64,000 nt of DNA, from the IMG/VR virus record IMGVR_UViG_3300037067_022550; one strand, 5' to 3'. The first letter of the stretch is position 1. Every line of letters starts with the position of its first letter. The translations under genes and the position numbers were made by a program. The notes under the pieces are model-generated. The model was not told the origin of the DNA. It did no database searches and saw only the letters and a program-made list of their open reading frames with translations. The stretch is from a virus. Positions 12,316-64,000 of this stretch are shown here, piece by piece.

Positions 12316-14299
12316 CTTTTTCAATAAATTTGCACTTTGGGAAAGCAGAACAACCTATAAAAGTGTTCCCGCTTTTTTTGGCAATTCTTTCAACTAGATC
12401 TGCACCACATTCAGGGCATTTTCTGCCGACCTTTTTAAATGTTTTCTTTTCTTTTAAAGAAAAAGAACCGTCTTCATTTTTTTGAAAAACGCTTTTACAT
12501 CCTGGATATTTGTTACAGGAATAAAATATTCCATACATTCCACTAACTTCAACTATGTCACCTTCTCTACAAACAGTGCATTTTTGTCCAACCATCTTTT
12601 GTTCTTTTTTTCCCATGGTATTTTCTTTTGCTCCTTTTATTTCATTTGTTAATACATTATATACATTTTGAACAATATCTAAATATGTTTTTTTACCATC
12701 TGCAATTAATTCTATGTCTTCTTCCAAACCTGCAGTAAATTTAACATCCATAAAAAAATCTTTAAATCTTGGATTGAGATAATCACAAATCTTCATGCCT
12801 AATTCTTGTGCTACAAATCCTCCGTTTTTGCCTTTTTCTTTTGTAACATAACCTTTATCTTGAATGCTTTTAATAATTGTGGCTCTGGTAGAAGGTCTTC
12901 CTATGCCGTCTGCTTCCATTTTTACAATCAAACTTCCATCATTATATCTTTTAGGAGGCTGTGTAGTATGTTTTGTTTTTTTAATATCCTTTAGATTAAG
13001 TTTCTCACCTTCATTAGCATTAGGCAAAATTTCTTCTTCTGTTTTAGAATATTTATAAACTTTAGACCATCCATCAAATCTAATGGTTTGTCCCTTTGCA
13101 ATTAATTCGTGTTTAGAATCTGTTTTAACTTTATAGACAACCGTATCTACTACCATTGGAGACATTTGACAGGCTAAAAACCTATCTCTTATTAATTCAT
13201 ACATTTTTTTATGTTCTGAATCTAATCCGCTTCCTTCATCTTCAATATGAGTTGGACGAATGCACTCGTGAGCTTCTTGAGCAGCTGCTGAAGACTTTTT
13301 AGCGTAGGAATTCGGTTTAGAAGGCAAATATTTAGAATCAAATTTTTCTTTTATAAAACCTATTACAGAATCCAATGCTTCTTGAGAAATAGTATAAGAA
13401 TCTGAACGAATATAACTAACCTTACCTATCTCATAAAGATGTTGAGCTATTTGCATGGTTTTGGTTGCATTGAATCCAAATAAAGAAGAACAAGAAGATT
13501 GCAATGAAACAGTATCAAAAGGTGGTTGAGCTTTCCTTTCTTTTGTTTCTCTTTCTATTTTATCTAATGTAAATGTAGATTTTTTTAGTGCTTCAAAAGA
13601 ATTAGTGGCTAGTTTTTCATCAATAAATCTATTTTCTTTTTCTTTAGTTACTACTTTTGCCCAAAATTCCCCATTATCATTTTGCAAAAGACATTCTACA
13701 TACCAAAAATCAGTTGGGATAAATGCTTTTATCTCTTTTTCTCTTTCACATATAAACTTTAAAGCTATGGATTGCACTCTACCTGCAGAAGTTCCTTTGC
13801 CAACTGAAAACCAGAGTACCGGAGAAACTTTATAACCGATTAGTCTATCTAAAACTTGTCTTGCTTTTTGAGCATCCACAAGATTATTATCATCATTTAT
13901 ATCTCTTCTATTTTTAATGGCAGTTTCAATTGCTTTTTTAGTTATTTCATTAAAAGAAATTCTAAAACACTTTTTCTTGTCTTTTTCACTTAAAAGATCA
14001 TATATATCCTTAGAAATTCTGGAACCTTCTTTATCTGGATCTGATGCTAAATAGATTAATGGGCTTTTGCCAGCATATTCTTTTATTTTCTTTACAACAT
14101 CTTTTTTTCCGCTAATGATTTGGCAAGTAGGAATAAATCCGTTTTTTATATCAATATTTAATCCCTTCTTAGGTATTTCCATTATGTGGCCGACTGAGGC
14201 TATAACATCATAGTCTGTCCCTAAAAAAGATTTTATCTTTCCACATTTATTAGGCGACTCAACTATAACTAGTTTATTACTCATTTTTTTTATCTCCAA
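12308..14299 (-). CDS. topA: DNA topoisomerase I (type IA) with two C-terminal C4 zinc ribbons
   Basis: TOPRIM N-terminus LVIVESPNKCGKIKSFLG. Zn ribbons CTVCREG...CNKYPGCKS and CPECGADL...CSAFPKCKF. Confidence 0.8.
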   Translation of the reverse strand: MEIKKMSNKLVIVESPNKCGKIKSFLGTDYDVIASVGHIMEIPKKGLNIDIKNGFIPTCQIISGKKDVVKKIKEYAGKSPLIYLASDPDKEGSRISKDIYDLLSEKDKKKCFRISFNEITKKAIETAIKNRRDINDDNNLVDAQKARQVLDRLIGYKVSPVLWFSVGKGTSAGRVQSIALKFICEREKEIKAFIPTDFWYVECLLQNDNGEFWAKVVTKEKENRFIDEKLATNSFEALKKSTFTLDKIERETKERKAQPPFDTVSLQSSCSSLFGFNATKTMQIAQHLYEIGKVSYIRSDSYTISQEALDSVIGFIKEKFDSKYLPSKPNSYAKKSSAAAQEAHECIRPTHIEDEGSGLDSEHKKMYELIRDRFLACQMSPMVVDTVVYKVKTDSKHELIAKGQTIRFDGWSKVYKYSKTEEEILPNANEGEKLNLKDIKKTKHTTQPPKRYNDGSLIVKMEADGIGRPSTRATIIKSIQDKGYVTKEKGKNGGFVAQELGMKICDYLNPRFKDFFMDVKFTAGLEEDIELIADGKKTYLDIVQNVYNVLTNEIKGAKENTMGKKEQKMVGQKCTVCREGDIVEVSGMYGIFYSCNKYPGCKSVFQKNEDGSFSLKEKKTFKKVGRKCPECGADLVERIAKKSGNTFIGCSAFPKCKFIEKDE

Positions 14300-16126: not shown

Positions 16127-16957
16127 CTAATAATTTTTTATTATTATTTCTTCTGATTTTGAATTTCCTGAACGACTTACTTTGTCATAATCACATTCTA
16201 TTTTAACAATATCATACTTCTTTATTCTATCACAATAGGGATTTTTTTTGCCTTTATGTTGCATTACATTAGACATTAAAAACCTTATTCCATTTGAGTT
16301 TAAACCATCAATATAATCATAGAGTTTTAATTCTAAGCTCTTTGACCAATAGCAATTATATCCAGCATCAGTAATCATATAAGGTGGATCTAAATAAACA
16401 AAAGCCCTTTTATTTTCTATATTAATGTTTTCAAAACTATTATTAATAAATACTAAATTGTTGTTGTTGTAAATTCTCTTATGATAATCATAAAGTTTTT
16501 TTTCAATACTTCTATTGAATATTCTATTGCCCCATGTTTGGTTAAAACTTAAACTTTTGTTAAATCTCATCATGTTGTTTGTGCAAGAACAGCAAAGCAA
16601 AAACAAATCAATAGGATTATTTTCCTTATTAAATCTTTCTCTTAATAGTAAATATTCTGTTTGATTTCTATTAATTTGTTTTTTTTGTATTGCGTCTAAT
16701 ACATCAAGCCAAGTGTTTTTCTGCATAAAAATATAAAATTCTATTAAAGGAAGTATAATGTCATTGGCATAAACTTTGTTTGACAAACAGTAATTAATGA
16801 AAAAACTTCCACCACCACAAAACAAATCATATATTTCATCAATATCAGAAGGAATATATTCAGACAATATAGGTATTAACTTATACTTAGAACCAGTGTA
16901 GTTTAGTGGAGAAGCAAGAACTTTTTTATCAACCCTATCAAATAAATTAGTTTCCAT
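16127..16957 (-). CDS. dam: DNA adenine methyltransferase (Dam-like, alpha class)
   Basis: N-terminal NYTGSKYKLIPIL, motif I LFCGGGSF, and motif IV FVYLDPPY near the C-terminus. Confidence 0.7.
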   Translation of the reverse strand: METNLFDRVDKKVLASPLNYTGSKYKLIPILSEYIPSDIDEIYDLFCGGGSFFINYCLSNKVYANDIILPLIEFYIFMQKNTWLDVLDAIQKKQINRNQTEYLLLRERFNKENNPIDLFLLCCSCTNNMMRFNKSLSFNQTWGNRIFNRSIEKKLYDYHKRIYNNNNLVFINNSFENINIENKRAFVYLDPPYMITDAGYNCYWSKSLELKLYDYIDGLNSNGIRFLMSNVMQHKGKKNPYCDRIKKYDIVKIECDYDKVSRSGNSKSEEIIIKNY

Positions 16958-21480: not shown

Positions 21481-21643
21481 AATTAACTCTCCCCATATTT
21501 TGACTATTCTACTTATTCTAATTAGTTCTTAAATTTTTGTTTATTTTCCTCTATATTCAAAAATATTGTGAAAATAATTAAATTAATGATAAAGGGTTTA
21601 TTGATTAAAATAAGGAACAATAAAGTAAATTGAGGAGAAAAAT

Positions 21644-24557: not shown

Positions 24558-25667
24558 ATGTCACTTCAAACTAGAGCAACAGCATTACAAGGAGAATATG
24601 TTAGGCTTTATTGTAGATTTATTCAGGATGGCATTTTAACAGATCCTTTTGCTGCACCAGAAGTTTATATAACAGATAACGGCTATTATCCGGATTCTGT
24701 TTCTTCATCTGAATCTTCTTCCTATAGCTACTCACTATCAGTTTCATCAGAAAGTTCATCTGAATCTGGAATTTATTATGGACCATTTACTGCACAAAAA
24801 GAACATACAGGACTTTGGTATATAGATTGGTTAGTTCCTGATAGTTTGCCTATTGGTAAATATTTTGATGTATGGAAATTTAAATGGTCAATAGATACAA
24901 GTATTAATAAAACAGAAATATTTGAATTAGTAGTAAATAAAATGGATCAACTTGTTAATTCTGTTAGCCCTGCAGAAACTTTCAATGTTGGGGATAATGT
25001 TTACGGTATGATGAACGATCTATCAAATAATTTCATCTATGAAGCCATGCATATACCTATATATTGGGAACAAGGTTATAAATCTAATGATAAAAAAACA
25101 ATTAACTTTGCCTTTGGTAATTGGAATCACGATCCCAGACCTATAATTAGAGTAAATCAAAAAATTCGTCCAGACGGTTGGCAACCCAATTATAATGGCA
25201 ATATTTATTTTAACCAAAGTTTAGATCCGGAAGATATGGTCTATGCTCAATATAATTTTAAATATTTTAGTAAAGAAGAAATAATGGATTTTCTTAATAT
25301 GGGTTTATATGCCATGAATGCTACACCTCCAGCTAGCCTAACTTATAATAGTATTAATAGTTCTCCTTTTGCTTGGAGATTTGGGATTATTTTATATGCT
25401 GCTATTAAAGCTATTCAAAGATTGGTGTTCGGATTAAATTTCCAAGAAAGAGCTTTAATATTTGCAGAAAAACCAGAAAATGTACAAGCTGCCATTAATA
25501 ACTTTAAGGCACTTTATGCAGATTATAATACTTTGTGGATTGAAGTTAAAAAAGAAGTTAAGACCTTGAAGTTGCCTAGTATCGGACAAATTTCTGTTCC
25601 TGAATATACGTTACCAGGTGGCAGAAGTCGTTGGTTTCGTTATCTTTACAAAAATGGATCTGGTTAA
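24558..25667 (+). CDS. hypothetical protein with Ser-rich low-complexity segment
   Basis: 369 aa. Low-complexity stretch SVSSSESSSYSYSLSVSSESSSESG. Confidence 0.45.
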   Translation: MSLQTRATALQGEYVRLYCRFIQDGILTDPFAAPEVYITDNGYYPDSVSSSESSSYSYSLSVSSESSSESGIYYGPFTAQKEHTGLWYIDWLVPDSLPIGKYFDVWKFKWSIDTSINKTEIFELVVNKMDQLVNSVSPAETFNVGDNVYGMMNDLSNNFIYEAMHIPIYWEQGYKSNDKKTINFAFGNWNHDPRPIIRVNQKIRPDGWQPNYNGNIYFNQSLDPEDMVYAQYNFKYFSKEEIMDFLNMGLYAMNATPPASLTYNSINSSPFAWRFGIILYAAIKAIQRLVFGLNFQERALIFAEKPENVQAAINNFKALYADYNTLWIEVKKEVKTLKLPSIGQISVPEYTLPGGRSRWFRYLYKNGSG

Positions 25668-26794
25668 GATAGTTGATGTTTCTCTTTATATCTTTTTAAT
25701 ATTAATTCTTTGTTTAAATTTAATATTGCATTTTTGTGTTTTAAATACTCTTGTTCATCAAACTTGTATAAAAGTTCTTTTATCGCAAATTTTTTAGTTA
25801 TTTTTAATAATTCTGATGAAGATTTAAAATCAAATATTATCCTAGGTTTTAGTTTTAACGCAGGACATCTAAATCTTACTTCTGCTGTTAATCCAAATTT
25901 TTCATATAATATTGTCTTTAATTTTTTATTTTCTTCTTCGGTAAAAGATTCAGAACACAATTGACATCTTGGAAGAGCATTGTTTAATTTTATTCCGTTT
26001 CTATATCCCCAATCAGTTATCCCATCATCCATAAACCAAATTGCTAAAACAAACTCATTTATATAATCTTCCATATTTTCTGGAACTACCTTTTTTCCGT
26101 TTTTATAAAAAGATTCTTTTAATTCTAAATTTAAACTATGAACTTTACAAACAAGTTGAAAAGTATAAACCCTAGTTCCAGATCTCTTATCATCTCCTAC
26201 GTAATAAGTAAAAGGGTTATTATTCCAAATTTCCTTTAAAAAACTAGCTTTCCACTCTAAATACTCAACTTGTTTTTCAGAATGTTTTTCTCTAAAATTT
26301 CCCCATTTATCTATACAACCATCCCCCAGAAGTGATCCAATAATAACATCCTTGGCTTCTTGAGACAATGGTTTTTCATTAGCAAGTCTTCTTATAAAAG
26401 TAGCTCCTTTTCTCTTAATGCCATAGAAGTCTCTTAAATATGTAATGTGTTCTCTTGGTATATTATATTTTTTTGATATATCATCTAAACTATTTATGGT
26501 TTGGTTATATTCTAATTCAAAAATTTCCTTATTAATAATTGTTGATTGATTTTTTAAAAAGTAATTATAAAAACTAATTAAGTGTTTAGATGTACCTTTT
26601 TTTATTTCTTTTGAAAATCCTCCATTTAATATTTTTTCTTTATATTCTTCAAAAGATATAAATTCTTTTTTTCTATGAGATGGTATTTTTAATCCATGTT
26701 CTTCCTGTTGAATGTGGCATTTATCAATACATTCCACCAATTCTTTTCTTGCCATTTCGTTGCTCACTTTATAAATATTGCTTGTTTTTAACAT
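25664..26794 (-). CDS. free-standing LAGLIDADG homing endonuclease
   Basis: Two LAGLIDADG motifs: IIGSLLGDGCID and LAIWFMDDGITD. Confidence 0.6.
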   Translation of the reverse strand: MLKTSNIYKVSNEMARKELVECIDKCHIQQEEHGLKIPSHRKKEFISFEEYKEKILNGGFSKEIKKGTSKHLISFYNYFLKNQSTIINKEIFELEYNQTINSLDDISKKYNIPREHITYLRDFYGIKRKGATFIRRLANEKPLSQEAKDVIIGSLLGDGCIDKWGNFREKHSEKQVEYLEWKASFLKEIWNNNPFTYYVGDDKRSGTRVYTFQLVCKVHSLNLELKESFYKNGKKVVPENMEDYINEFVLAIWFMDDGITDWGYRNGIKLNNALPRCQLCSESFTEEENKKLKTILYEKFGLTAEVRFRCPALKLKPRIIFDFKSSSELLKITKKFAIKELLYKFDEQEYLKHKNAILNLNKELILKRYKEKHQLS

Positions 26795-26930
26795 TATTTA
26801 TTCTCCTTAATTGTATATCTTATTATATATTACCAGAATTATTATACAACATCCTACAAAAATATACAATTTATTTTACCATATTTTTTATCCAATAGGA
26901 TTCTCCCCTTTAATCCAAGAAACATATTTC

Positions 26931-27815
26931 ATGAACAACATTACAAAAATATTAACACTTATATTTTTATTAATTTCATCAATATTATTTGCAGATTCAT
27001 TTTCTGCTTATATTGAAAATGATGTATATGAAAATAGTGATGGTTTCTATACTCATGGAACACAATTAGAATATACTCATAATATAGATTCAACCAATGT
27101 TTTAGGAATTAAGGGATCACAAGAAATATTTACTCCATCTGACAAAAATAATCCCCTTCCTGAATATGGTGACAGACCTTATGCAGGATGGTTACATGGG
27201 GATGTTTATTTGGAAAGATATTATGATAATCATTGGATAGATCATTATGAATTAAGTCTGGGAGTAGTTGGACCATATTCAGGTGGAGAATTAGCTCAAA
27301 AAACAGTTCATAAATGGTTAGGCAACAAACAACCTCAAGGATGGCAATATCAACTATTAAATGAACCTACTATTCAAATAAATTATGGTAAAATATACTC
27401 TGTTTTTTTAAATGATTATGTTGAATTACGTCCAGAAATGAGATTAAATGCTGGTAATGTTTTAGATGATTTTGAACTTATTCAAACTGTAAGATTTGGT
27501 TATAATATTCCTAAAGATTTTAGTCCTAGAATTTCTATTAAAGGATTATCAAAGAAATATTATTGTTATGGATTTTTAGGAGTAGCTGGGGCTGCAATTG
27601 CTAGGAATTTACTTTTAGATGGGAATACATTTAGGGAAGATGAAGATGTTGTGACTGTAGAACATAGACCAATTGTTTGTGATGGAATAATGGGTATATG
27701 CTTTGGAATAAATTTTATAGAAATAACTGTTACCCATATTGAACAAACAGATGAATTTTATGGTCAGAAGAGAGATGAAAGATATGACAGCTTAAAGGTA
27801 AGGTACATTTGGTAA
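26931..27815 (+). CDS. outer-membrane protein, LpxR/DUF2219-like (putative lipid A deacylase family)
   Basis: Signal peptide MNNITKILTLIFLLISSILFA. Mature N-terminus has YIENDV, and GDRPYAGWLHGD recalls a conserved LpxR-family motif. Start moved from 26811 to the internal ATG at 26931. Confidence 0.35.
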   Translation: MNNITKILTLIFLLISSILFADSFSAYIENDVYENSDGFYTHGTQLEYTHNIDSTNVLGIKGSQEIFTPSDKNNPLPEYGDRPYAGWLHGDVYLERYYDNHWIDHYELSLGVVGPYSGGELAQKTVHKWLGNKQPQGWQYQLLNEPTIQINYGKIYSVFLNDYVELRPEMRLNAGNVLDDFELIQTVRFGYNIPKDFSPRISIKGLSKKYYCYGFLGVAGAAIARNLLLDGNTFREDEDVVTVEHRPIVCDGIMGICFGINFIEITVTHIEQTDEFYGQKRDERYDSLKVRYIW

Positions 27816-31274: not shown

Positions 31275-31411
31275 ATTAATATTTATTCTTATTTTTTAAA
31301 TAAAAAACCTATAAACACAATTTTAAACAAACAATTTTATTTTTTGTAGGATTAGGCAAAAATGTATGGGAATTAATAATTATATTAAAAATCAATATAA
31401 AAGGATAATAT

Positions 31412-39641: not shown

Positions 39642-39836
39642 TTATTTTAGAACAAATTCACCTATTTCTTCGTTAAATATAACACCTATGCATTTAATGT
39701 CAACTTGAGGCAAAATAACGTTTTCTAATGTTTTTATATTAACTCCATGAGAAACGACTCTAAATTTTTTGCCTTCTTTATTTTCCTCCTTTGTAGTTAT
39801 AACAACAATTATTTCTTTTAAGCATTCTTCTTTCAT
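39642..39836 (-). CDS. hypothetical small protein
   Basis: 64-aa ORF only. Confidence 0.25.
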   Translation of the reverse strand: MKEECLKEIIVVITTKEENKEGKKFRVVSHGVNIKTLENVILPQVDIKCIGVIFNEEIGEFVLK

Positions 39837-43204: not shown

Positions 43205-43627
43205 CTATTTCTTTGAAACTTTTTGATAATTTTCTAATTCTTCTGACAATGTAGCCGGTTTTGTTTTAGATTGATTTTTCATTAAACTATTAAATATGGC
43301 GTTTTCCCTATTTCTTTCTTTTAATAGCAATTCTTCACTTTTATCACCAACTAGATCATTTTTATGGTCTTTCTTAATGGGATTATTTTTAACTTCTTCT
43401 TTAATAATTTTTACATACCATTTCATTAAAGGAAGCCAATTTTGAGGAGTACTTACTTTAATTTTCTTTTTATCTTTTTCTGACTGAACTTCTCCTTGCC
43501 AAGCAAGCTGTAGAATCTCGCACTTATCACATTTTTCACAATAACGAATAAGCGGGTATTTTTCTTTTGTATTTTGTTTTGGGTTGTCAATAAGCAACCA
43601 TTTATGTTTAAAGTGAAATGGATTCAT
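43205..43627 (-). CDS. hypothetical protein
   Basis: Start moved to the internal ATG at 43627, which has a strong SD TAGGAGAAAT. This removes the 56-nt overlap with the upstream gene. Confidence 0.4.
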   Translation of the reverse strand: MNPFHFKHKWLLIDNPKQNTKEKYPLIRYCEKCDKCEILQLAWQGEVQSEKDKKKIKVSTPQNWLPLMKWYVKIIKEEVKNNPIKKDHKNDLVGDKSEELLLKERNRENAIFNSLMKNQSKTKPATLSEELENYQKVSKK

Positions 43628-43634
43628 ATTTCTC

Positions 43635-44390
43635 CTAATAATAATTTTGTTCATAATCTTCTTTCTCAGAAATACTGTCTTTTTGTTCATCTAATTCCTT
43701 TTGAGATTTGACAAACTTACGTATCCCTAATGGATCTGATTTATTACCAGTTAAATAGTAAGCACAGACCATATCCTTCATTCTTACGGTGGGATATTTG
43801 TCTTTTTTACAATAGTTCCACATTTCTCTGAAAACTTCATCGGAAAACAGTACTTTCATTTTTAATCCGTGCGTACGATTTTTTTCTCTATTATAATATG
43901 GAATTTCTTCTTTTTCTACTGATAGAACGAATTTATTATTTTTTAGATATTCAAGCACTCCGTCTATATGATAGTGTTCATTGTCGATGCCACCGCAATA
44001 ATCAAAATACATAACTGTTGGTATTGGGTAAAGATCCTTTATTTTAAAAACCATATGCCCACCGTAATATGGGCACAATATTCTATTAATGTCCAATTTT
44101 TTTTCATTCTTGAATTTGTCAAAAGGAATAATAAATTCATTAAATTTTATTTCAGTAAAATGTTTGACATTAAATTCATCAAATATCTTTTTATCAAAAT
44201 AATAATATGAAAGATTTTTATCAAGTTGGTCTTCAGATTTAAAAGGCATTTTATTACAATGAATTTGATAACTTTGAATCTTATTATTTTGTTTGCTAAC
44301 ATAAATATTAATATTCTTATTACCATCAACTGAATATATGTCTGTTTCGTAAGTAATTACTGTTTTGACACATTTTCTTATTTCAATCAT
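43635..44390 (-). CDS. hypothetical protein
   Basis: 251-aa ORF only. Confidence 0.45.
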   Translation of the reverse strand: MIEIRKCVKTVITYETDIYSVDGNKNINIYVSKQNNKIQSYQIHCNKMPFKSEDQLDKNLSYYYFDKKIFDEFNVKHFTEIKFNEFIIPFDKFKNEKKLDINRILCPYYGGHMVFKIKDLYPIPTVMYFDYCGGIDNEHYHIDGVLEYLKNNKFVLSVEKEEIPYYNREKNRTHGLKMKVLFSDEVFREMWNYCKKDKYPTVRMKDMVCAYYLTGNKSDPLGIRKFVKSQKELDEQKDSISEKEDYEQNYY

Positions 44391-44416
44391 ATCATATTTA
44401 TCCTTTTATATGTCAT

Positions 44417-44641
44417 TTATATTGAAATGGTTTTTCCTTTTGATGGCTGACTAGAAACAATATTAATAATATGTTCCCTAATTTTAGCGTCTAAATGAAA
44501 ATAAACATTTGGATCAACTCTAGTAAAAATATGACTTCTGTTTTTTTTAGCATATTCCAAAATATATCTTCTACACATTGATTTTTTTATCATCGTTTTC
44601 ATTATTTTATCATTCTCATAAATTCTTCTTCTGATATGCAT
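44417..44641 (-). CDS. hypothetical small protein (uncertain)
   Basis: 74-aa ORF overlapping the ligA 3' end. May start at an internal Met. Confidence 0.2.
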   Translation of the reverse strand: MHIRRRIYENDKIMKTMIKKSMCRRYILEYAKKNRSHIFTRVDPNVYFHLDAKIREHIINIVSSQPSKGKTISI

Positions 44642-46584
44642 GTGACTCCAAGGGCAGAAGCCTTATCCATCTTAGAACCGCACTTTTCTCCACAAATAAG
44701 ATAGTTTAATTTGCTTGAAACTGAAGAAGAAAAATTTCCCCCATTTTCTTCAATCATTTCTTGAAATTTGCTTCTTGAACTACTTAATGTTCCAGTAATG
44801 CAAAAGCTTTTACCATTTAGTTTTTTTGACATTGTTTCTTTATCCTTTTTTATTGTTATGTAACTATTCAATAATCTATCTATTTGATCCCTTTGCTTTT
44901 TCCATCCATTGATAAAAGAATTAGCTTTCTTTTCTTTAAATCCATGAATTTTAACTATATCTTCTACTTTTAATTTGTCAATATCTTTAATTGTAGGAGC
45001 TATGGCTGTAATATCTTTACTCATTCTGCCTATCTTGCCTATTCCCAAAGCTTCTATAAAATCTGCTAATGAAAGCTCCTTAACAGAATTAACAGCTTGA
45101 ACAATATTGGCAAAGGCTTTCTTGCCAAAAATCTCATTATACACTGCTGGGCCGTCGGGCTGATATATGTTAGACAGATTGCACAATAAATACATATCTG
45201 CAACATTCCTGAGTGGTATGTAGCCTTCTTTTTCTTCTCCAGATGTTAATTTTTCAATAATTCCTGGACCAATACCAAGAACTCCTATTTTTTTAAACCA
45301 ATGTTCTATGCATCTGTCAACCTGTGCTGGGCAAGCGTCATTATAGCAATGTTTTGTGGTTTCTGTATCATCCCATTCCAATTCTCCTTCACAAGCAGGG
45401 CAAGTATCTGGTATTTCTATTTTTTTCCCCTTGCCCTGTTCTACTACTTCAATTATTTTGGGAATAATATCTCCTGCTTTCTCCAGTACAATTTTGGTGC
45501 CCAAATTGGTAATGCCAAGTCGCGTCATTTCCTTTAAGTTATGGATAGTTGATCTTTGAACTGTTGTACCAGCAATATGAACTGGTTTTAACAATGCTAC
45601 AGGGGTCAAAGAACCTGTGCGACCAATGCTCCATTCTACGCCTTCCAAGATTGTCTCTTTTTTTTCTGTTGGGAATTTTATTGCCCTATTAGCTTTGAGT
45701 CTTTTACCTTCATCTGTTGTACCCATTGACTCTACTAATTCCAGATCATTAATTTTAACAACAATCCCATCAACATCAAAAGGCAAGTCTTCCCTCTTTA
45801 CTTGGTTCATAAATTTATTAATTTCTTTTATGACATCTTCTACTTTCTTGCCTTTACAAACAATCAAACTAGTTTCGTCCCTCAAGGTTTTAAACCCATT
45901 ATATTCAAGAAACTTTGATTTTTCAACTTCTTGTTTAAAGTCTACACCACGAACATCATAGGCTATAAACTCCAATCCTCTGCGTTTTGTTTCTTGTGGA
46001 TCTTTCTGGTTAATAGCTCCTGCAGTAAAATTTCTAGGATTGGCTGGATTCCTTCCGTTGATAAGTTGATTTGCCCAATTTTTATAAAAATCTTGTCTAT
46101 TTTTGAAAACTTCACCCTTAATTTCTACATATCCTTGGCTACTAATTTTTTCTTGAACGTTTTTAATAAAGCGAGCGTTACTTGTATAGTCCAACCCTTC
46201 TACTCCATCTCCACGAGAAACCCCCTGAATAAACTTACCGTCTTGATATTTAAGACAAAAAGAACTTCCGTCAACTTTTAATTCAACAACAAGAATAAGT
46301 TTGTCTAACTTATCACCGAATGTTTTCTCAAACCATTTTGCAAACTCATCTGTGTTTGGATCTTTGTTAAGAGATCCCATAATATATTTGTGTTTAACCC
46401 TAGTACCATAGACAGATTCTTCTATTCCACCAACTTCACTAAAAAAATCATTTGTGGGGTCAAGTTCTTTTAGAGCAGAATATTCCTTGTCATATTCATC
46501 ATCTGTAATAGGAGAAGTTCCATTGGTTTCATACAGTTTGGCACATTTTTTGAGATAATCTATCCTATCTTGAACTGATTTCAT
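44602..46584 (-). CDS. ligA: NAD-dependent DNA ligase
   Basis: Adenylation KxDG motif (ELKVDGSSF). Zn finger CPACEGELEW...C..ACP. C-terminal HhH and BRCT region. 660 aa. Confidence 0.85.
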   Translation of the reverse strand: MKSVQDRIDYLKKCAKLYETNGTSPITDDEYDKEYSALKELDPTNDFFSEVGGIEESVYGTRVKHKYIMGSLNKDPNTDEFAKWFEKTFGDKLDKLILVVELKVDGSSFCLKYQDGKFIQGVSRGDGVEGLDYTSNARFIKNVQEKISSQGYVEIKGEVFKNRQDFYKNWANQLINGRNPANPRNFTAGAINQKDPQETKRRGLEFIAYDVRGVDFKQEVEKSKFLEYNGFKTLRDETSLIVCKGKKVEDVIKEINKFMNQVKREDLPFDVDGIVVKINDLELVESMGTTDEGKRLKANRAIKFPTEKKETILEGVEWSIGRTGSLTPVALLKPVHIAGTTVQRSTIHNLKEMTRLGITNLGTKIVLEKAGDIIPKIIEVVEQGKGKKIEIPDTCPACEGELEWDDTETTKHCYNDACPAQVDRCIEHWFKKIGVLGIGPGIIEKLTSGEEKEGYIPLRNVADMYLLCNLSNIYQPDGPAVYNEIFGKKAFANIVQAVNSVKELSLADFIEALGIGKIGRMSKDITAIAPTIKDIDKLKVEDIVKIHGFKEKKANSFINGWKKQRDQIDRLLNSYITIKKDKETMSKKLNGKSFCITGTLSSSRSKFQEMIEENGGNFSSSVSSKLNYLICGEKCGSKMDKASALGVTCISEEEFMRMIK

Positions 46585-46630
46585 GGTTTTGTTCCTAAAT
46601 GGTTTATGACTTATTCTTTAAAATAATGTA

Positions 46631-47029
46631 TCAGATGTTAGTTGTTTTGTCAATACTATTTTGAAGAATATTGGCGTTTAATAATTCCAACCATTTGTTT
46701 TTTAGTTTAACGGAAATTTCGCGAGTGCCGACAGGTATTGCAATGTCAGAAGAAATAACTTTTGAACTATCCCAGTTTAAGCCAACTTTCACTGACTTCT
46801 CTGACACTTTCCTGCGAAAATCAGATTTACTAGATGAAATTCCCAACTCCAGCATTATCCATGATATATTAACTGGAAATGGGCACACTAAAATAACCAT
46901 GTCGTCTTCGCTTATATCTGCAATAATTGTGTTATCAAAAATCTTATCTCTGTTTTCAATTTCGCTAATCTGTTCGCAAATAAAACCAGACTTTATTTGG
47001 GGATGCCCACTTAATGAAAACTTATTCAT
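46631..47029 (-). CDS. hypothetical protein (possible S4-like RNA-binding C-terminus)
   Basis: FRRKVSEKSVKVGLNWDSSKV weakly resembles S4-type motifs. Confidence 0.3.
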   Translation of the reverse strand: MNKFSLSGHPQIKSGFICEQISEIENRDKIFDNTIIADISEDDMVILVCPFPVNISWIMLELGISSSKSDFRRKVSEKSVKVGLNWDSSKVISSDIAIPVGTREISVKLKNKWLELLNANILQNSIDKTTNI

Positions 47030-47160
47030 ATTTTGACTACATTCTTTAAAGGTTTCCTTACTTATTCTTTAAATACAATGTAGCAGACATTAATAGATTT
47101 GTCAAGTATTAACTTCTATTCTACCACTTTATGCAATTATTTAAATCACAATTATTAGCT

Positions 47161-47412
47161 CTATTTTTTTGTAAATGGATAAAACAAGACTGGTTGATGT
47201 CTTGTTTCTCTATTAGCATTATACATAATGGATTCCTTATGTTCTGATCGCGTGAATAAAACAAAATGTCCATTGTCGTCTTCCACCCAAACCACAGCAG
47301 ATGGACCAATTTCTTTTTGATAAATATTCCAATAATCAAACGCTGCTTTGATGAGTTTTTTTGCAGCTTTTCCAAGGTCGCTTTTCAAATTTATTGATTT
47401 ATTTGTTTGCAT
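47161..47412 (-). CDS. hypothetical small protein
   Basis: 83-aa ORF only. Confidence 0.3.
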   Translation of the reverse strand: MQTNKSINLKSDLGKAAKKLIKAAFDYWNIYQKEIGPSAVVWVEDDNGHFVLFTRSEHKESIMYNANRETRHQPVLFYPFTKK

Positions 47413-47714
47413 TTTTTATCTTTTTTTGAAGGGATTTGCCAATCCATGTGACCAAAGCTACAAAATATCATTCCATTAATCGCATTACAACCACCGTCTG
47501 GATAAATACAATTGGTTAAAAAATTTTTATATTTAACTTCTTCATCCACAAATTGTGGGACTTCAATAATTCTGCGTCTATTGGCAAGATTAAGTTGATA
47601 GTCTACGTGATAACCATTTTTTTCAAAAGATTTAATAGTTTTAAAATCAGAATAAAACTGTTTGTGGCTTGCTTTTGGTCTTTCTCCGTGTTCCCATATT
47701 TCCATGTCTGTCAT
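47391..47714 (-). CDS. hypothetical protein
   Basis: 107-aa ORF only. Confidence 0.3.
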   Translation of the reverse strand: MTDMEIWEHGERPKASHKQFYSDFKTIKSFEKNGYHVDYQLNLANRRRIIEVPQFVDEEVKYKNFLTNCIYPDGGCNAINGMIFCSFGHMDWQIPSKKDKKCKQINQ

Positions 47715-47794
47715 GTTGTTTTACTCCTGCTGCTATTTTAATGGCTATCAGTTCTTTGGTTGAACATGCCCAACAATTTTAGTGATTTTGTAAT

Positions 47795-48610
47795 TTATTT
47801 TCCCAACAACATTTCCTTGGTTATTTCTTTAGGAATCTTTTGGGCAAATTTATTCTTTATTTCAATAAACTTTTCAAACCCAGGATTACCTTCTTTAATC
47901 CAATTTTCAAAAGAAAGATACTCTTTAGGAACATCTTTAAGTTGATCAAATTCTTTATATAAATAATATTCTGATATTTTATGCAATCTTTTATCATAAC
48001 TTGGAATGAAAGGAATTATAAGTTCAACACTAAATGGAACATAATAAGACATATCTCTTGTTAATTCTGCAGTAAAACCGTTCATGCTTGGAACATAATT
48101 AAAATCTTTCAATATTTTATCCCAAATTTTTCCTCTTTTCTCCCAATCTTTATAATTAATTCCATCAAGAGGGTCTGTATTGTTCCAATAACCGAATTTT
48201 TTTATCCATTCTTGTTGAAACCACATTTCATTAATTTTTCTATTATCACAAAATAGCATTCCGTAAAATGTATCTTTATACAAATGAACTGTGGCAGAAC
48301 AGGAATAATCAAAAAGGCTCCTTTCTGGAGAAATTTTTACTTTTTTAGTTTCTTGCAGTAAATATTCGTATGCATAAAAAAAGGGGGATGTATTTTTTTC
48401 ATTATTTTCTATACCACAGCAACAATTGTCTATAAAATTTGATGCAATAGCGGCAGAAAATTTATTGAATTCACTAGTAATATATTTATCAATTTTATGT
48501 CTAAATTCCTGATTTTTTTTATTTATAACTGCTATGTTTTTAGGAACAAACATAAAACCATCATATATTTTTGTACTCATATTTTCACATTTAGTGCAAT
48601 GGTTGATCAA
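47795..48610 (-). CDS. hypothetical protein
   Basis: 271-aa ORF, Cys-rich N-terminus, no motif recognised. Confidence 0.4.
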   Translation of the reverse strand: MINHCTKCENMSTKIYDGFMFVPKNIAVINKKNQEFRHKIDKYITSEFNKFSAAIASNFIDNCCCGIENNEKNTSPFFYAYEYLLQETKKVKISPERSLFDYSCSATVHLYKDTFYGMLFCDNRKINEMWFQQEWIKKFGYWNNTDPLDGINYKDWEKRGKIWDKILKDFNYVPSMNGFTAELTRDMSYYVPFSVELIIPFIPSYDKRLHKISEYYLYKEFDQLKDVPKEYLSFENWIKEGNPGFEKFIEIKNKFAQKIPKEITKEMLLGK

Positions 48611-48649
48611 CTTGTTTATTTTTTAAAAAAAAATATTTCTAATTATCAA

Positions 48650-49024
48650 TTAATTACTTTTTAGTTTATTTAAATCTTCTTCTGCATTTTTTATTTGTTC
48701 CTCTAGTCGTTTCATTTCTTCCTGTTTGCGAATAATTTTATAAGCAATTTCTTTCTTTTCTCTACTTTTTTTAGCTTTTTCAACTCTTTTGCTTTCATCA
48801 ATAAATTCAGTAGCAGAAACTGTCAATTTTACAATTAACGGAATCCCATAATCTGGGTAATTATTGGCCCACCAAGTAACCATAGATCTGGCTCCACCAA
48901 TTTTGGGGTAAATACGTGCCTTATTTATGTTATCAACCCAGCATGTTCCACTACCACCGTATCCCTTTCTCCTAAGCCATTTTCCATCTTTACTTTGAAC
49001 AACATATAATTCTAAATTTTGCAT
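48650..49024 (-). CDS. hypothetical protein with coiled-coil C-terminus
   Basis: 124-aa ORF with C-terminal K/E-rich helix. Confidence 0.35.
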   Translation of the reverse strand: MQNLELYVVQSKDGKWLRRKGYGGSGTCWVDNINKARIYPKIGGARSMVTWWANNYPDYGIPLIVKLTVSATEFIDESKRVEKAKKSREKKEIAYKIIRKQEEMKRLEEQIKNAEEDLNKLKSN

Positions 49025-51268: not shown

Positions 51269-51447
51269 AGTTTTTCTCCTATTTGTTAAAAGACTACCAT
51301 ATTATAAAATAATGTCAATAATTTTATTATTATATAGAATATACACATTTTTACAATATTTAATTATAAAAAAATAAAAGAAGAAAGGATATTTAAAAAA
51401 AACTATGAATGATAAAATAGTTAATAAAAAACTAAAAGGAGAAAAAC

Positions 51448-57598: not shown

Positions 57599-57684
57599 AT
57601 ATAATTATTTCTTTATTTGCTAATATTTGTCCTTTATTTTTTATATATTATTCTTTTATCAATATTCAATTACCTACATATTAT

Positions 57685-57912
57685 TCAATTAATTAGTTCA
57701 AAGTCCTTGCTACCACAATTTTTACAACCGTCAGAAAAATATTGTTCATCCAAAACCAATCCGCAGTTAGAGCATTTTATCATTTTGACTGTTGTAAGTT
57801 CAGGATTATTAATAGAATTATCTATTACTGCAATTAGGGATTTACCTATAAATCTGCCGCTAGGTGTTTTATTAAAAACCCCTTGTAATTGTAGTATTCT
57901 TTTAATGTCCAT
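57685..57912 (-). CDS. small Zn-ribbon protein
   Basis: CSNCG...CKNCG. Confidence 0.3.
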   Translation of the reverse strand: MDIKRILQLQGVFNKTPSGRFIGKSLIAVIDNSINNPELTTVKMIKCSNCGLVLDEQYFSDGCKNCGSKDFELIN

Positions 57913-58001
57913 AAGTATTTATTCAATCAAATATTAAATTTTCCTTCATAGGTAATTTTTAAAAACTGATTGAATAATTAAGCATAATAGGAGAAAAACC
58001 A

Positions 58002-59732: not shown

Positions 59733-60932
59733 TTATCTTACAATAGAAATTTTTCTGATAGCACTGGCAAAAATAGCATCTTTAGAATCTGTTGAACCTG
59801 TTCTTAATTCATAAAGTCCGTCAAATGCACATATATATCTTTCTATATTTTTATTAAGTACCATTTCTTTTTTATTGGAATTTTCTGAAACAATAGACTT
59901 GGGAAGAATATTGTTTATGAAATTCAATATGTCTTTATTGTTGTAATTTGATGGTAGATTCTCGTTTTTAAAATCAATTTCTTTATCTTCTGAAACTGAA
60001 TTCAAAATTCGGGGATCTAAAAGTTTCTGTTTGAATATTTCTTCCCTGATAAATTTGTTTACTGAAAAATTGTTTATTTTATTTAGTGTGCCATATTTAA
60101 ATAATAAATGAGAATAAATAACATGCCATCTTATCTGCTTCAAACACAATATAATAATGCCGTCATAATTAAAGCCGTTATTCATTAGATTTTCGGCAGC
60201 ATTCATTATTTTTGAATAAGAACCGGTATTTAAGGCTGTATAAAATGACCAAACAGGATAATCTTTTGACATTGGAAATGTTAGGTCAGTAACATCTTCT
60301 TGCTTTATATCATTTCCATCAACAGAAATAGAAATTTTATTAATTTCACTATTTAATGCCAATCTATTGTCTCCTACTATTTCAAGTAAAAGATTAGCAT
60401 TTTCTTGAGTAATTTTTTTATCTTGTTTTTTGAATTCTTCAACAATATATTTTATCTTTTCGCTTATTGAAAATTCTGAAATAGGAATTCCAGCATTTGA
60501 AATAGTAGCGTTTTGGTAACAAAATTGTTTAAAATCAATCCACTTTAGTTTTCCAAAACAAGCCTTACCGTTATTTAGAACATTAGTCTTGTCACATACA
60601 ATAAGATAATTGCTATGTGGTAAATTTTTAAAGGCATTAAATAAAAACTCAAGAAATGCGGAGCTATCTATTATTTCTTTTAAAACGATAAACTTTTTGT
60701 CATTGTCTATCCAAGAAGAACAGGTAATTTCAGAATCAACTAAATTAAGCCATTTTTCTTCAGATGATGATTTCTTTTTAAAACTAGGTATATCTATCTC
60801 TTTCCATAAATTTGGAGGAATTTGTTTTATGTTTGGAAAAAAATATTTTTTTATTTTTATTAGCTTTTCAGGATAAAATGACGGATCTCCACATATTAAA
60901 ATAACATTTTTTAATTTACTTTTTTCAGACAT
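59733..60932 (-). CDS. hypothetical protein, possibly clamp-loader delta-like subunit
   Basis: N-terminal NVILICGDPSF resembles the HolA N-terminus (yLlyG.d). Location next to dnaN. Weak call. Confidence 0.3.
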   Translation of the reverse strand: MSEKSKLKNVILICGDPSFYPEKLIKIKKYFFPNIKQIPPNLWKEIDIPSFKKKSSSEEKWLNLVDSEITCSSWIDNDKKFIVLKEIIDSSAFLEFLFNAFKNLPHSNYLIVCDKTNVLNNGKACFGKLKWIDFKQFCYQNATISNAGIPISEFSISEKIKYIVEEFKKQDKKITQENANLLLEIVGDNRLALNSEINKISISVDGNDIKQEDVTDLTFPMSKDYPVWSFYTALNTGSYSKIMNAAENLMNNGFNYDGIIILCLKQIRWHVIYSHLLFKYGTLNKINNFSVNKFIREEIFKQKLLDPRILNSVSEDKEIDFKNENLPSNYNNKDILNFINNILPKSIVSENSNKKEMVLNKNIERYICAFDGLYELRTGSTDSKDAIFASAIRKISIVR

Positions 60933-61238
60933 AATAATTATTATTTCAATTTACTGAACCATTAATTTTCCATGATTTTTGACAACCACCCTTGCCTTGC
61001 TAAAGATGAAAAAGCAGAACTTTTTGCTTTCCAGACTTCGTCTTCTTTTGAATTTTCTCCTCCTACTCCGTCTTTATCCCAAGTATACCATAGTCAGTTA
61101 GAATAAACAGATGCCCTACATCTTCCAAAAGGAGAAAAACTTAATTGCCATTCTTGTAGACAATCTGACCAATGCCACCTTAAAAAATATAATACAATTC
61201 TACGAAATATGGAATACATTTTTTTTGATCCAAAATAA

Positions 61239-62477
61239 TTAATTTGGTGTCATACTTTGCATCAAATAGACAAAATTGGTATCTTTATCAATAGAAGACA
61301 TTTTTATCTTTTTTTCGTCTTTAGAAAATGAAATTTTTATATTATTTCCATTTATCTTTTTACAACCATCTTTAATAAAACTATTTGACATTGCAACAGG
61401 ATTGTTTAAAGAAGATTCGATTTGATTACATCCTACAATAGCTGTTTCTGGATCAGTTCCTCTTCTGGCTGCATCAACCTTTATCTCTGATTTACCAGCA
61501 TTAACATGAAAGATTGATTTTTCAGAATTATATAGACTCAAGAATTCAACAGCTTCTAACAAGTCTGCTTTATCTACAACTATATTTGTTGGCAAATTCA
61601 AATTAAGTATATTAATGAAATTGGGAAACTGTTGTTTAATTTCTTCTGATGCAATACATAATTTTATTTTAAGTCTTTCTGAAGATAGTATAATATGTTC
61701 CTTATTTTCACAATCAATTATTTCAATTTTTTCATCATCTTCAAATGATTTGCAAGATGTTTTTAATAAATTACCGTCAATTAAAAATTTTTGTTCATCA
61801 CAATTAATTTTAACATCATCTTTATTTTCGCCAATAGAGAAAATGGCACATCTTTTGCCGTCTGTACCAGCTAAATAAATATTTTTACCAGAAACAACAA
61901 TTGCTATCCTATCAAGGATGTTGGACAAATCTGTTGGGTCTACTGCAAATATTACTTGTTCTACGGCTTCTTTAAACGCTTTGGCTTTAAGAGAAAAAAT
62001 AACTTTATTGTAGTTATAATCAACTTTAACAAACTCACTAACTGGAAAGGTATCGTTTTTGCCCTTTCTTTTCTCTGATTTGTTATCAATAGCTATTGTT
62101 GTTATTTTGCCGTTAGGCTGAACAATTCCTGCAAAAGAATCTTTACCATAATTTTCATTTTCTTCATAAGAAATCTGAATGGAATATTTATTGGAAAGGG
62201 TATTTAAAACCTTTAAGTAACTACTTGCTTCAACACAAAAGCTGCCTTCTTCTTCTGTAATTATACTTTCATCTTTTGGGACAGAGCATAATATGGATAT
62301 TTTTGGAGACGAAGATTCAAAAGCAATGGAATCTTTATTTGAAGATATTTTTATACAAGAATCAGTTGGCCTAATTTTCTTTCTTTCTTCATCTTGTGAA
62401 TCTTTGGTTAATGCTCCAGATACACTTTTTTCTACTAATGCTGTTAATGTTTTTAACGGTACTGTCATTTTCATCAT
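61239..62477 (-). CDS. dnaN: DNA polymerase III beta subunit (sliding clamp)
   Basis: N-terminal MKMTVPLKTLTALVEK, LAGTDGKRCAI, and C-terminal FVYLMQSMTP resembling the beta-clamp C-terminal motif. 412 aa. Confidence 0.7.
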   Translation of the reverse strand: MMKMTVPLKTLTALVEKSVSGALTKDSQDEERKKIRPTDSCIKISSNKDSIAFESSSPKISILCSVPKDESIITEEEGSFCVEASSYLKVLNTLSNKYSIQISYEENENYGKDSFAGIVQPNGKITTIAIDNKSEKRKGKNDTFPVSEFVKVDYNYNKVIFSLKAKAFKEAVEQVIFAVDPTDLSNILDRIAIVVSGKNIYLAGTDGKRCAIFSIGENKDDVKINCDEQKFLIDGNLLKTSCKSFEDDEKIEIIDCENKEHIILSSERLKIKLCIASEEIKQQFPNFINILNLNLPTNIVVDKADLLEAVEFLSLYNSEKSIFHVNAGKSEIKVDAARRGTDPETAIVGCNQIESSLNNPVAMSNSFIKDGCKKINGNNIKISFSKDEKKIKMSSIDKDTNFVYLMQSMTPN

Positions 62478-62580
62478 ACTATTTTACTCCTTTGTTCTTA
62501 ATTTTTATCAACTACTTTTTAACTACTTTTTAACTATCAATCATTATACAATAAAATATAAAAATGCAAAGTAAATATTT

Positions 62581-63486
62581 TTAATTGAACAAAAGAGGGA
62601 CAATATCTTTGCTGTTGCATTTAATAAGTTCTTGAGCCTTTTTTCTTATTCTTAATAGGGCATTGTCTATAGACTTGGCATTATATCTAATTTCTAATCT
62701 TTTAGACACCCCTTTAGCAACTTCTTTATAAGATTTTTCATTTAAGTATTCCTCTAAAACCACTATTTCAAAACTACTCAATCTACTTTTTATTGATTCA
62801 AATGTTTGATTAAAACTTTCTTTATCTGAAAGTTTTTTGTAAGGTAATGTTTTATTATTATCATCTGCAATTATGTTAGAAAGAGGAGCCATTTCCATTT
62901 CATTGTCATTTTGATTAATTGGAGAATGATCCATGCTAACAGCAGTATTTATTGGAATATTTTTTTTCCTATGTTTGGATGCGTGTAGAATAGTTATAAG
63001 ATGTCTAGTTATACACATTTTGGCAAAATTTAAAAAAGACATTCCTTTATTGGGATTGAATTTTGGTATAGCTTTTTTAAACAATGCTATTAAAGATTCT
63101 TGATACATGTCGTTTTCATCGTAACCTTTAATAAAACTAAATTTTTTAAATACTAAACCCAACAAATATTTGTGTATATAAAAATGTATTTTATTGAAAC
63201 AATCATTATCATTTGGATGTTTTTGCATTTTTAATGCTAATGCATCAAGTTCTTTTCTTACTTCTCGGGGAGTTCCTATTAAAGGATCATTTACTCCCGT
63301 AACATTAAAAATAGAAACATCTTCTTCAACAGAACTTATAGGTAAGATTTCATCTGATATTACAACCTTTATCTTTTTTCTATAATTTCTTTTTTTAAAA
63401 CAGGAACGTTTTTTAAACACTCTTACCTGTTTAATCTTTTTATTACATTTTGTTTTTCTTTTGTTTTTTGATTTAACTAGTGGCAT
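62581..63486 (-). CDS. RNA polymerase sigma factor (sigma-70 family) with K/R-rich N-terminal extension
   Basis: Region 2: DMYQESLIALFKKAIPKFNPNKGMSFLNFAKMCITRHL. Region 4 HTH: SYKEVAKGVSKRLEIRYNAKSIDNALLRIRKKA. SD AAGGGGGA is 4 nt before the ATG. Confidence 0.65.
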   Translation of the reverse strand: MPLVKSKNKRKTKCNKKIKQVRVFKKRSCFKKRNYRKKIKVVISDEILPISSVEEDVSIFNVTGVNDPLIGTPREVRKELDALALKMQKHPNDNDCFNKIHFYIHKYLLGLVFKKFSFIKGYDENDMYQESLIALFKKAIPKFNPNKGMSFLNFAKMCITRHLITILHASKHRKKNIPINTAVSMDHSPINQNDNEMEMAPLSNIIADDNNKTLPYKKLSDKESFNQTFESIKSRLSSFEIVVLEEYLNEKSYKEVAKGVSKRLEIRYNAKSIDNALLRIRKKAQELIKCNSKDIVPLLFN

Positions 63487-63539
63487 CAATCCCCCTTTTA
63501 AAGGATAGACGCCGCACGCTATGTTTCTAATCTAATTTA

Positions 63540-64000
63540 TTATTTCGCATTACTGACATCGTTTTTAAGAAGAATAAGGCAATTAATTAGTGCAGCCTCT
63601 AATATCCATCTTTCATTTAAATTAACGTTTATTTCTTTTTCTATTCTACTCAAAGCACTTGCCGTCTTAATCAAACTATTTCTATTAACCTTTTCTGCAA
63701 TTTCAGCAATGGACTTTCTTTCAACATCCAAAACATCTAATAGAGCTGAATCTTTCCCACAAATTTTACATACAAATATATTTCTTAAAATATATGAAAT
63801 ATCATTTAATATTGTTTTTGCTTCTATTCCAGATTGCAATAAAATATTAACTTTTTCTAATAGCCCAGAAGCATCCTGTGAAACCATTAAATTAACTATT
63901 TCATAAGTAATGGTTTCATCAGGGATACCAAAATATTCATTGGCTTCTTTTTCTCCTATCTTATTGTCTTTTGCCATAGCAATTTGTTCTAAATGATTAA
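63540..64000 (-). CDS. dnaX: DNA polymerase III tau/gamma (DnaX)-like, C-terminal part only, 5' end beyond the window
   Basis: The reading frame stays open upstream of the listed Met to the window edge. ITYEIVNLMVSQDASGLLEKVNILLQSGIEAKTILNDISYILRNI resembles DnaX domain III. Confidence 0.45.
   Translation of the reverse strand, partial: NHLEQIAMAKDNKIGEKEANEYFGIPDETITYEIVNLMVSQDASGLLEKVNILLQSGIEAKTILNDISYILRNIFVCKICGKDSALLDVLDVERKSIAEIAEKVNRNSLIKTASALSRIEKEINVNLNERWILEAALINCLILLKNDVSNAK

Follow-up and report, generated by a model that had tools for sequence, protein, structure and literature searches.

The 64,000-nt stretch of IMG/VR virus record IMGVR_UViG_3300037067_022550 (hereafter the window) carries on its minus strand ligA, the gene for a 660-aa NAD-dependent DNA ligase (44602..46584), and, upstream of it, a 132-aa ORFan termed orf132 (46631..47029). 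Ahead of each gene stands an exact copy of the 14-mer TTTAAAGAATAAGT, at 46622..46609 and 47073..47060 on the minus strand, as an initial annotation of the sequence had noticed. These are the only two exact copies in the window. Their 3' ends lie 24 nt before the ligA ATG (46584) and 30 nt before the orf132 ATG (47029), and both are preceded by TACATT. The annotation took the motif to recur ahead of several genes and proposed it as a candidate for a phage-specific promoter class, read by a sigma factor that the phage encodes. The window is part of a genome on a 263,965-bp metagenomic contig, and the same genome was found in three other samples. Megablast of 44000..49000 identified no close relative among GenBank phages.

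The codon statistics of orf132 are typical of the small genes in the window (0.23 nats/codon). A 121-codon open reading frame antisense to it (46671..47036, plus strand) was judged spurious by the same measure (0.015 nats/codon). Among 5.8 billion proteins no homolog of orf132 was found other than itself, and none was found in a scan of viral collections. An origin of orf132 from ligA or other DNA of the window was rejected, as neither blastn nor tblastx detected any similarity. Structure prediction gave an unusable model (pLDDT 41, no alignment depth).

Architecture of the predicted promoters P1 and P2

Both copies of the 14-mer are located directly downstream of a complete -35/-10 pair. The unit upstream of orf132, P1 (47060..47105, minus strand), is composed of a -35 box TTGACA (47105..47100), a 17-nt spacer (47099..47083) with a TG at 47085..47084, the -10 box TACATT (47082..47077), GTA (47076..47074) and the 14-mer (47073..47060). 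The unit upstream of ligA, P2 (46609..46653, minus strand), is composed of TTGACA (46653..46648), a spacer (46647..46631), TACATT (46630..46625), AT and the 14-mer (46622..46609). The -35 box of P2 sits within the 3' end of orf132, and the orf132 stop codon TGA provides the last three bases of the P2 spacer, which are the TGn of the extended -10. The -35 box matches the consensus at 6/6 positions in both promoters. The spacer is 17 nt, the optimal length, in both and 16–17 nt in the nine promoters that were aligned, and the extended -10 reads TGC-TACATT in P1 and TGA-TACATT in P2, with TGn present in 9/9 aligned promoters. TACATT is a non-consensus hexamer that keeps the A at position 2 and the T at position 6. 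The proposal of a promoter element ahead of consecutive genes is thus borne out; the phage-specific class is not, as the canonical arrangement TTGACA-N17-TGnTACATT lies directly upstream of both copies. The 14-mer begins 2–3 nt downstream of the -10, the difference being a 1-nt indel (GTA versus AT). The single-register consensus TACATT(A/G)T(A/T) plus motif given initially therefore misfits, and the site placed at 47062..47085 is located at 47060..47082.

Transcription from sigma-70 promoters starts ~7 nt after the -10. At this distance the start would fall in the A run of TTTAAAG, and for P1 it is predicted to be an A of AAAG near 47070. The 14-mer would therefore cover the discriminator, +1 and the first ~10 transcribed bases (about -4 to +10). 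The RNA leaders are unstructured (z of +0.5 to +0.7), no Rfam family was matched, and no terminator-like site was found near 46585..47160.

P1 and P2 can be aligned over ~62 nt, and this larger repeat is the unit that stands above chance. Within it, the orf132 leader contains TTTAAAGAAT at 47041..47050 (minus strand), which aligns with the Shine-Dalgarno region TTTAGGAAC of the ligA leader and is followed by ATG-TAG in alignment with the ligA ATG. This suggests that TTTAAAGAAT and ATG-TAG are a decayed remnant of a duplicated ligA leader. The initial annotation had counted TTTAAAGAAT as a third copy of the motif at 47035..47044; the string is present at the corrected position and represents a decayed leader copy rather than an independent instance.

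Within the window, the 14-mer is not a dispersed or genome-wide motif. A search of the kind the initial annotation had called for found 10 sites at ≤2 mismatches against 6.06±2.37 expected, and 8/100 shuffles reached 10. Exact 14-mers common to intergenic segments number six others in the window, short exact matches being common because the DNA is ~29% GC. The string GAATAAGTAGAATAGTCAAAATAT upstream of a putative fibre gene, reported earlier as related and as spanning 21495..21520, is present at 21495..21518. It has only the 8-mer GAATAAGT in common with the 14-mer, and this 8-mer occurs 8 times in the window. The region also has a 13-mer in common with the orf132 start region, again at chance level (blastn-short E=0.45), and the relatedness was rejected. 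No Pfam or PHROG match was obtained for the 'fibre' gene. A second promoter-like site is located just upstream of P1 at 47118..47145 (minus strand), reading TTTAAA-N16-TGGTAGAAT, and orf132 possibly has tandem promoters. This site and the fibre-upstream region have GTAGAATAG in common, which is not above chance.

The -35/extended -10 arrangement, by comparison, is enriched in the window. The pattern TTGAC[AT]-N16-18 ending in TGn-TAnnnT occurs 7 times against 0.53±0.72 in dinucleotide shuffles (0/300), and 6/7 sites lie 23–53 nt upstream of a same-strand ATG. When the test was confined to 5.3 kb of gene-oriented upstream DNA and that DNA itself was shuffled, TTGACW-N16-18-TAnnnT was found 5 times against 0.23 expected (0/500 shuffles). 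TTTAA follows the -10 within 10 nt in 4/7 class sites, the background frequency being 4.2%. Promoters of this class thus seem in general to have a T run and then an A run where transcription would start, and the full 14-mer appears specific to the ligA-type promoter. The 9-mer core of the 14-mer, TTTAAAGAA, is found 5 times in gene-oriented upstream DNA against 0.51 expected (0/500 shuffles). One instance belongs to an independent promoter of the same type at 3794..3833 (plus strand), TTGACT-N16-TGCTATCTT-TCT-TTTAAAGAA, which ends 16 nt before the ATG of a radical-SAM gene (3849..4844) and is non-paralogous to P1 and P2. Another belongs to a site lacking a -35 box at 7548..7566 (plus strand), where TGTATAAT-AA-TTTAAAGAA is followed by AGGAAAGG and an ATG at 7580, a start that agrees with an independent gene call. 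The core stands at the same offset from the -10 in this site.

Conservation and probable recombination around ligA

Related genomes were collected via LigA, via a pattern scan of metagenomes and via the 271-aa protein encoded upstream. The metagenome scan returned 26 matches, of which 23 were unrelated and due to chance, 7 of them from a single coding-sequence family. The full composite promoter pattern had 0 matches in viral collections. A relaxed pattern matched only L035 there, which neither blastn nor tblastx showed to be similar to the window, and this match was taken as chance. The arrangement TTGAC(A/T)-N16/17-TGnTAnnnT is present in 8/8 ligA-upstream promoters from 7 genomes, and only the relative L005 has no promoter ahead of ligA. 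The 14-mer is identical in L032 and L029. L036 has TACATT-ATC-TTTAAGAAATAAGG, which matches 11/14 positions of the 14-mer, and the 14-mer is not recognisable in L040, L007 and L001, the latter two of which keep the -35/-10 pair ahead of ligA. In five copies from four genomes, TACATT and the 14-mer are invariant together; other relatives have TATGCT, TATCGT or TAGAGT. The genome L002 from a second sample is 98.5% identical overall and is uninformative on the promoters because it is identical across them.

The pattern of conservation among P1, P2 and the ligA promoters of L032 and L029 resembles a phylogenetic footprint. In 6/6 pairwise comparisons, identity is 100% over the two boxes and the 14-mer, whereas the spacers are identical at 8–15/17 positions and the next 24 nt at 9–18/24. 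Invariant columns amount to 12/41 in the flanks versus 14/14 in the 14-mer, and the chance of 14/14 at the flank rate is ~3e-8. The spacers of L032 and L029 are identical to that of P2 at 8–11/17 positions, spacers and leaders are near saturation, and the ligA 5' coding DNA is 74–76% identical. Near-saturated spacers indicate that time was sufficient for unconstrained positions to change. Since the two boxes and the 14-mer are invariant while spacer and leader drift, the 14-mer block appears to be constrained as strongly as the core boxes.

The single promoter of L032 provides a view of how the two copies arose. In this genome a homolog of the 271-aa gene (85% aa identity) is followed by one unrelated 97-codon open reading frame, the single promoter and ligA. 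The promoter is identical to P1 at 44/46 positions. Its spacer and discriminator are identical to P1 at 18/20 positions and to P2 at 9/20, and its leader is identical to P1 at 9/24 and to P2 at 18/24, a switch of identity relative to P1 with a Fisher p of 0.0005. Judged by these identities, the L032 promoter is chimeric with respect to the two window copies, resembling P1 in its upstream part and P2 in its downstream part, which places the breakpoint in the shared patch from the -10 to the 14-mer. A single promoter is also present in L029, L036 and L040, so the duplicated state is probably derived, and orf132 is absent from these three genomes and from L032. The two exact copies thus look like paralogs from a duplication around an inserted ORFan, not like a motif recurring ahead of several genes. 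Between the 271-aa gene and ligA, the open reading frames differ among the window, L032, L029, L036, L040 and L037. As the content changes with every genome examined, this interval is a hyperplastic region. In L005, the variable region upstream of ligA contains at 7233..8924 an IS200/IS605-type pair (Y1 transposase and an OrfB/Cas12f-like TnpB).

The LigA protein is itself a mosaic. Its first ~80 residues are 84–87% identical to those of L032 and L029 and the remainder only 28–50%, with the step in identity near codon 80 (~46345). A wider range of 68–87% was also obtained for residues 1–80 against these two genomes. The LigA proteins of L005, L007 and L001 are roughly 40–80% identical throughout with no step, and that of L040 is 68–95% identical. 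Recombination within the ligA 5' region is implied, and the step suggests that the promoter and the 5' end of ligA travel as a module.

We consider it probable that the 14-mer is the discriminator, start and initial transcribed segment of a host-type ligA promoter doubled around an ORFan, with no phage-specific class involved. The promoter would be a strong sigma-70/sigma-A promoter (TTGACA, 17 nt, TGnTACATT, 2–3 nt, TTTAAAGAATAAGT) and the ancestral ligA promoter in a clade of uncultivated large phages. Homologous recombination within the invariant -10-to-14-mer patch (~22 bp) would have inserted a module of leader, orf132 and promoter into the resident ligA promoter, or deleted that module in the relatives. 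P1 would then drive orf132, and ligA is probably transcribed from P2 as well as by read-through from P1, since no terminator lies in between. The host holoenzyme would read both promoters. The block would be conserved for start-site choice and promoter escape, given a purine-rich and unstructured initial transcript, and/or for binding of a regulator.

Several points count against this account. The start site and the polymerase and sigma factor used at P1 and P2 are inferred from sequence, and TTGACA/TATAAT may not be the consensus of the host's primary sigma factor, in which case the inference would fail. The window comprises 64 kb, the whole genome being at least 264 kb long, and more sigma factors or motif copies are possible elsewhere. 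The composite pattern TGnTAnnnT-N2-3-TTTAAAGAA occurs 3 times in the window against 0.04 expected (0/200 shuffles), the third site being the one ahead of the radical-SAM gene, and the statistics for such composites were partly defined post hoc, after the data had been seen. Part of the 14-mer invariance could reflect shared ancestry younger than the ligA gene body, because the promoter and the first ~80 ligA codons form a mosaic module shared with L032, L029 and L036. The recombination event could be either an insertion or a deletion, and its crossover can be located only approximately. Finally, the invariance of TACATT and the 14-mer exceeds what sigma recognition would need, which leaves room for an overlapping protein-binding site. 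The block from -12 to +12 may be invariant because of promoter kinetics, because an operator overlaps it, because it acts in the leader or in pausing, or because it is used as a recombination patch.

Comparison with known systems and rival explanations

P1 and P2 resemble housekeeping sigma-70/sigma-A promoters in the TTGACA box, the 16–17-nt spacer, the TGn, the A2 and T6 of the -10, the AT-rich discriminator and the placement 23–53 nt upstream of starts. Housekeeping promoters with an extended -10 (TGn, the '-16 region') are used by many phage early genes. The differences are that the -10 here is TACATT rather than TATAAT and that within the sub-clade neither it nor the 14 bases downstream vary; the host's sigma consensus may differ. 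The strong sigma-70-type promoter N25 of phage T5 offers a second comparison, as its initial transcribed sequence strongly modulates productive initiation (PMC12464699). The first ~11 bases of the predicted transcripts in the present phage are rich in purines and invariant in evolution. The promoters are not similar to N25 in sequence, and an effect of this kind on initiation kinetics, if it operates here, would be a plausible reason for the conservation of the first transcribed bases.

The arrangement P1-orf132-P2 recalls the promoter-early stem-loop (PeSL) elements, mobile regulatory cassettes of T4-type phages (PMC2839356; PMC4122927). A PeSL pairs a strong early promoter of the sigma-70-like kind, ending 3' in a Shine-Dalgarno sequence and ATG, with a stem-loop terminator (PMC2839356). 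In the T4-type phage RB49 an ORFan lies between two sigma-70-like promoter cassettes, phi1 has a single cassette, and PeSL crossovers have been mapped between the -10 and the ATG (PMC2839356). In the window a promoter likewise stands on both sides of the ORFan, with a single chimeric copy in L032. The locus is hyperplastic, its content changing from relative to relative, and the crossover would lie between the -10 and the ATG. Promoter, Shine-Dalgarno sequence and ATG at the 3' end are present at P1 and P2. The stem-loop is missing: none of the promoters forms a significant DNA stem-loop (fold z of -0.80 for P1, -0.56 for P2, -1.02 for L032 and +0.29 for L029), and the lack of a terminator-like site has been described above. 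A further difference is that the phage is not T4-like. PeSLs form a dispersed multi-copy family and mini-circles; in the 64 kb covered here, one closely similar pair is found among 7 class promoters. By analogy, P1-orf132-P2 would work like a PeSL without being one. The locus also resembles lambdoid morons in having a small accessory gene with its own promoter between two conserved genes. It is unlike a moron because no terminator lies between orf132 and ligA; moreover, the 3' end of orf132 contains the P2 -35, and the two flanking promoters share homology with one another as well as with the resident one. Homologous flanking promoters point to homology-driven exchange rather than illegitimate recombination, and the same contrast with morons has been drawn for PeSLs (PMC2839356).

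The window does encode a sigma factor of its own, as noted initially. An open reading frame at 62581..63489 (minus strand) is SigH-like, matching phrog_351 (E=1.4e-11), the NCBIfam SigH models (E~1e-30, below their equivalog cutoffs) and a PDB sigma-H chain (E=1.4e-10). SigH promoters have AGGA at the -35, 17–18 nt and GAAT at the -10, with which the AAAGAATAA contained in the 14-mer is compatible (PMC12456013). It is nonetheless very improbable that the 14-mer and TACATT are the recognition motif of a phage-specific class read by this protein, since a complete TTGACA-N17-TGnTACATT stands directly upstream of both copies, the only two exact copies are paralogs, and L001 and L007 keep the -35/-10 pair before ligA without the 14-mer. 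No AGGA is found 17–18 nt upstream of GAAT in either copy, and the sole nearby AGGA, in the P1 leader, is 10 nt from the GAAT of the third copy. Sites with the SigH geometry occur at other loci. AGGA-N17/18-GAAT is found 4 times in oriented upstream DNA against 0.20 expected (0/500 shuffles), at 9144..9168 (minus), 31348..31373 (plus), 51386..51410 (plus) and 57921..57945 (minus), with one more at 57683..57707 (minus). Controls with wrong spacings (N13-14, N21-22 and N25-26) gave 0 each. The candidate SigH-type sites lie 8–38 nt upstream of same-strand starts of genes without assigned function, and a few similar intergenic AGGA/GAAT sites are present in relatives. This genome may therefore have a promoter class read by the phage's own sigma factor, though not at this motif; a different motif at different genes is plausible. 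Nor does the 14-mer look like a stretch without function of its own that is merely the best-preserved part of a recent tandem duplication of the ligA promoter. The duplicate-like alignment of P1 and P2 over ~62 nt, and the six other exact 14-mer pairs between intergenic segments, would fit such a neutral remnant. We think it quite improbable, given the 14/14 invariant columns in L032 and L029 against near-saturated spacers and leaders and the recurrence of the 9-mer core, at an unchanged offset, in two promoters that are not paralogous.

If the block has a function beyond sigma recognition, the stretch from -10 to +12 (TACATT-N2-3-TTTAAAGAATAAGT) may also serve as an operator for a phage or host regulator that switches promoters during infection. 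Such a role is compatible with a host-type promoter, and its invariance in five copies from four genomes, in excess of what sigma binding needs, argues for it. Repressor sites are commonly centred on +1, and an imperfect dyad with 7–8/11 pairs is centred on TTT|AAA at the predicted start. In DNA this rich in AT the dyad is a weak one; it was recognised post hoc and was set aside as evidence. In addition, the 1-nt deletion in P2 shifts the half-sites, no candidate regulator was identified, and the other two promoters that bear the core have only TTTAAAGAA in common, so we regard an operator as unlikely. Somewhat less credit is given to an action of the conserved bases at the RNA level or in early elongation, as a 5'-leader element or as a -10-like pause hexamer AAGAAT (~+2..+7). 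Sigma-dependent promoter-proximal pausing at a -10-like hexamer is known from lambdoid late promoters, and AAGAAT agrees with TATAAT at 4/6 positions, A2 and T6 among them. Both predicted mRNAs would begin with the block as their first ~11 nt, A-rich and unstructured and thus favourable to ribosome access, and in L036 the bases homologous to it continue into the Shine-Dalgarno sequence (TTTAAGAAATAAGGAG). An improbable explanation nevertheless, it is speculative in that no conserved RNA structure or Rfam family was detected, the distance from block to start codon varies (24, 30, 25 and 25 nt, shorter in L036), and no antiterminator or leader-binding protein was identified. Beyond these single functions, it is possible, if doubtful, that the block from -12 to +12 is a clade-specific dual element, acting both as a regulatory site that overlaps the start of a host-type promoter, whether operator or determinant of escape or pausing, and as a homology patch for the exchange of promoter-linked ORFan cassettes and the ligA 5' end between phages. 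If so, it would be a stem-loop-less analogue of PeSL shuffling outside the T4 superfamily, in uncultivated jumbo phages.

With a host-type ligA promoter doubled around an ORFan as the preferred explanation, the promoter feature is real, conserved and ordinary, and current understanding is not overturned. The analysis corrects the tempting inference that a repeated motif and a phage sigma factor make a phage-specific promoter. It also offers, outside the T4 group, a clean case in which copies of a resident promoter stand on either side of an ORFan and a relative shows the single chimeric state, in support of the view that recombination in hyperplastic regions uses conserved promoters as linkers. 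Greater interest would attach to the locus only if the start-site block proved to be regulator-binding or recombination-specific.

Other candidate promoters and genes in the window

For a phage of at least 264 kb, a usable promoter map emerges with host-type -35/extended -10 promoters (7 sites), sites with TGTATAAT lacking a -35 box and the candidate SigH-type class, which fits the SigH-like sigma factor of the phage. Other members of the host-type class include a site at 51291..51318 (minus strand), where TTGACA-N16-TGGTAGTCT runs straight into TTTAAC and lies 23 nt upstream of the start at 51268, and sites with the sigma-A-type pattern at 6645..6672 (plus) and 39676..39703 (minus). The -35-less signal TGTATAAT, often in the form TTGTATAATA and T-rich upstream, recurs without TTGACA at 7548 (plus) and, on the minus strand, at 17031, 24388, 26841, 55601, 56746 and 62543. 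In oriented upstream DNA it is found 6 times against 0.63 expected (0/500 shuffles), and it is also intergenic in the relatives L036, L005, L007, L001 and L029. These sites may constitute a third promoter class. The upstream region of the sliding-clamp gene (62478..62580, minus strand) contains, downstream of its TGTATAAT site, a tandem direct repeat of two AAAAAGTAGTT units (GTTAAAAAGTAGTTAAAAAGTAGTTG).

A predicted gene without assigned function at 43635..44390 (minus strand, 251 aa) appears to be a hypervariable locus, since all 101 differences between L002 and the window over 6.4 kb fall within 43600..44000, inside this gene. Some hints about the host come from gene content. An LpxR homolog (lipid A 3'-O-deacylase, an outer-membrane protein) is encoded at 26811..27815 (plus strand; Pfam E=6e-66) and suggests a diderm host, and the strong Shine-Dalgarno sequences argue against a host in Bacteroidota. 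No close homolog of LpxR was found when reference genomes were scanned for the host, no tRNAs were found in the window, and the viral-collection scan gave no relatives of the radical-SAM protein.

Also noted were an intein (N- and C-terminal splicing motifs) in a 905-aa open reading frame with a TviB-like nucleotide-sugar dehydrogenase (9197..11914, minus strand) and a free-standing LAGLIDADG endonuclease gene (25664..26794, minus strand). The window also encodes a topoisomerase I (12308..14299) and a Dam methylase (16127..16957). Beside the sigma gene lies a replication cluster (59733..63977, minus strand) with a holA-like clamp-loader delta subunit, a DNA polymerase III beta clamp and a DnaX C-terminal-like fragment.

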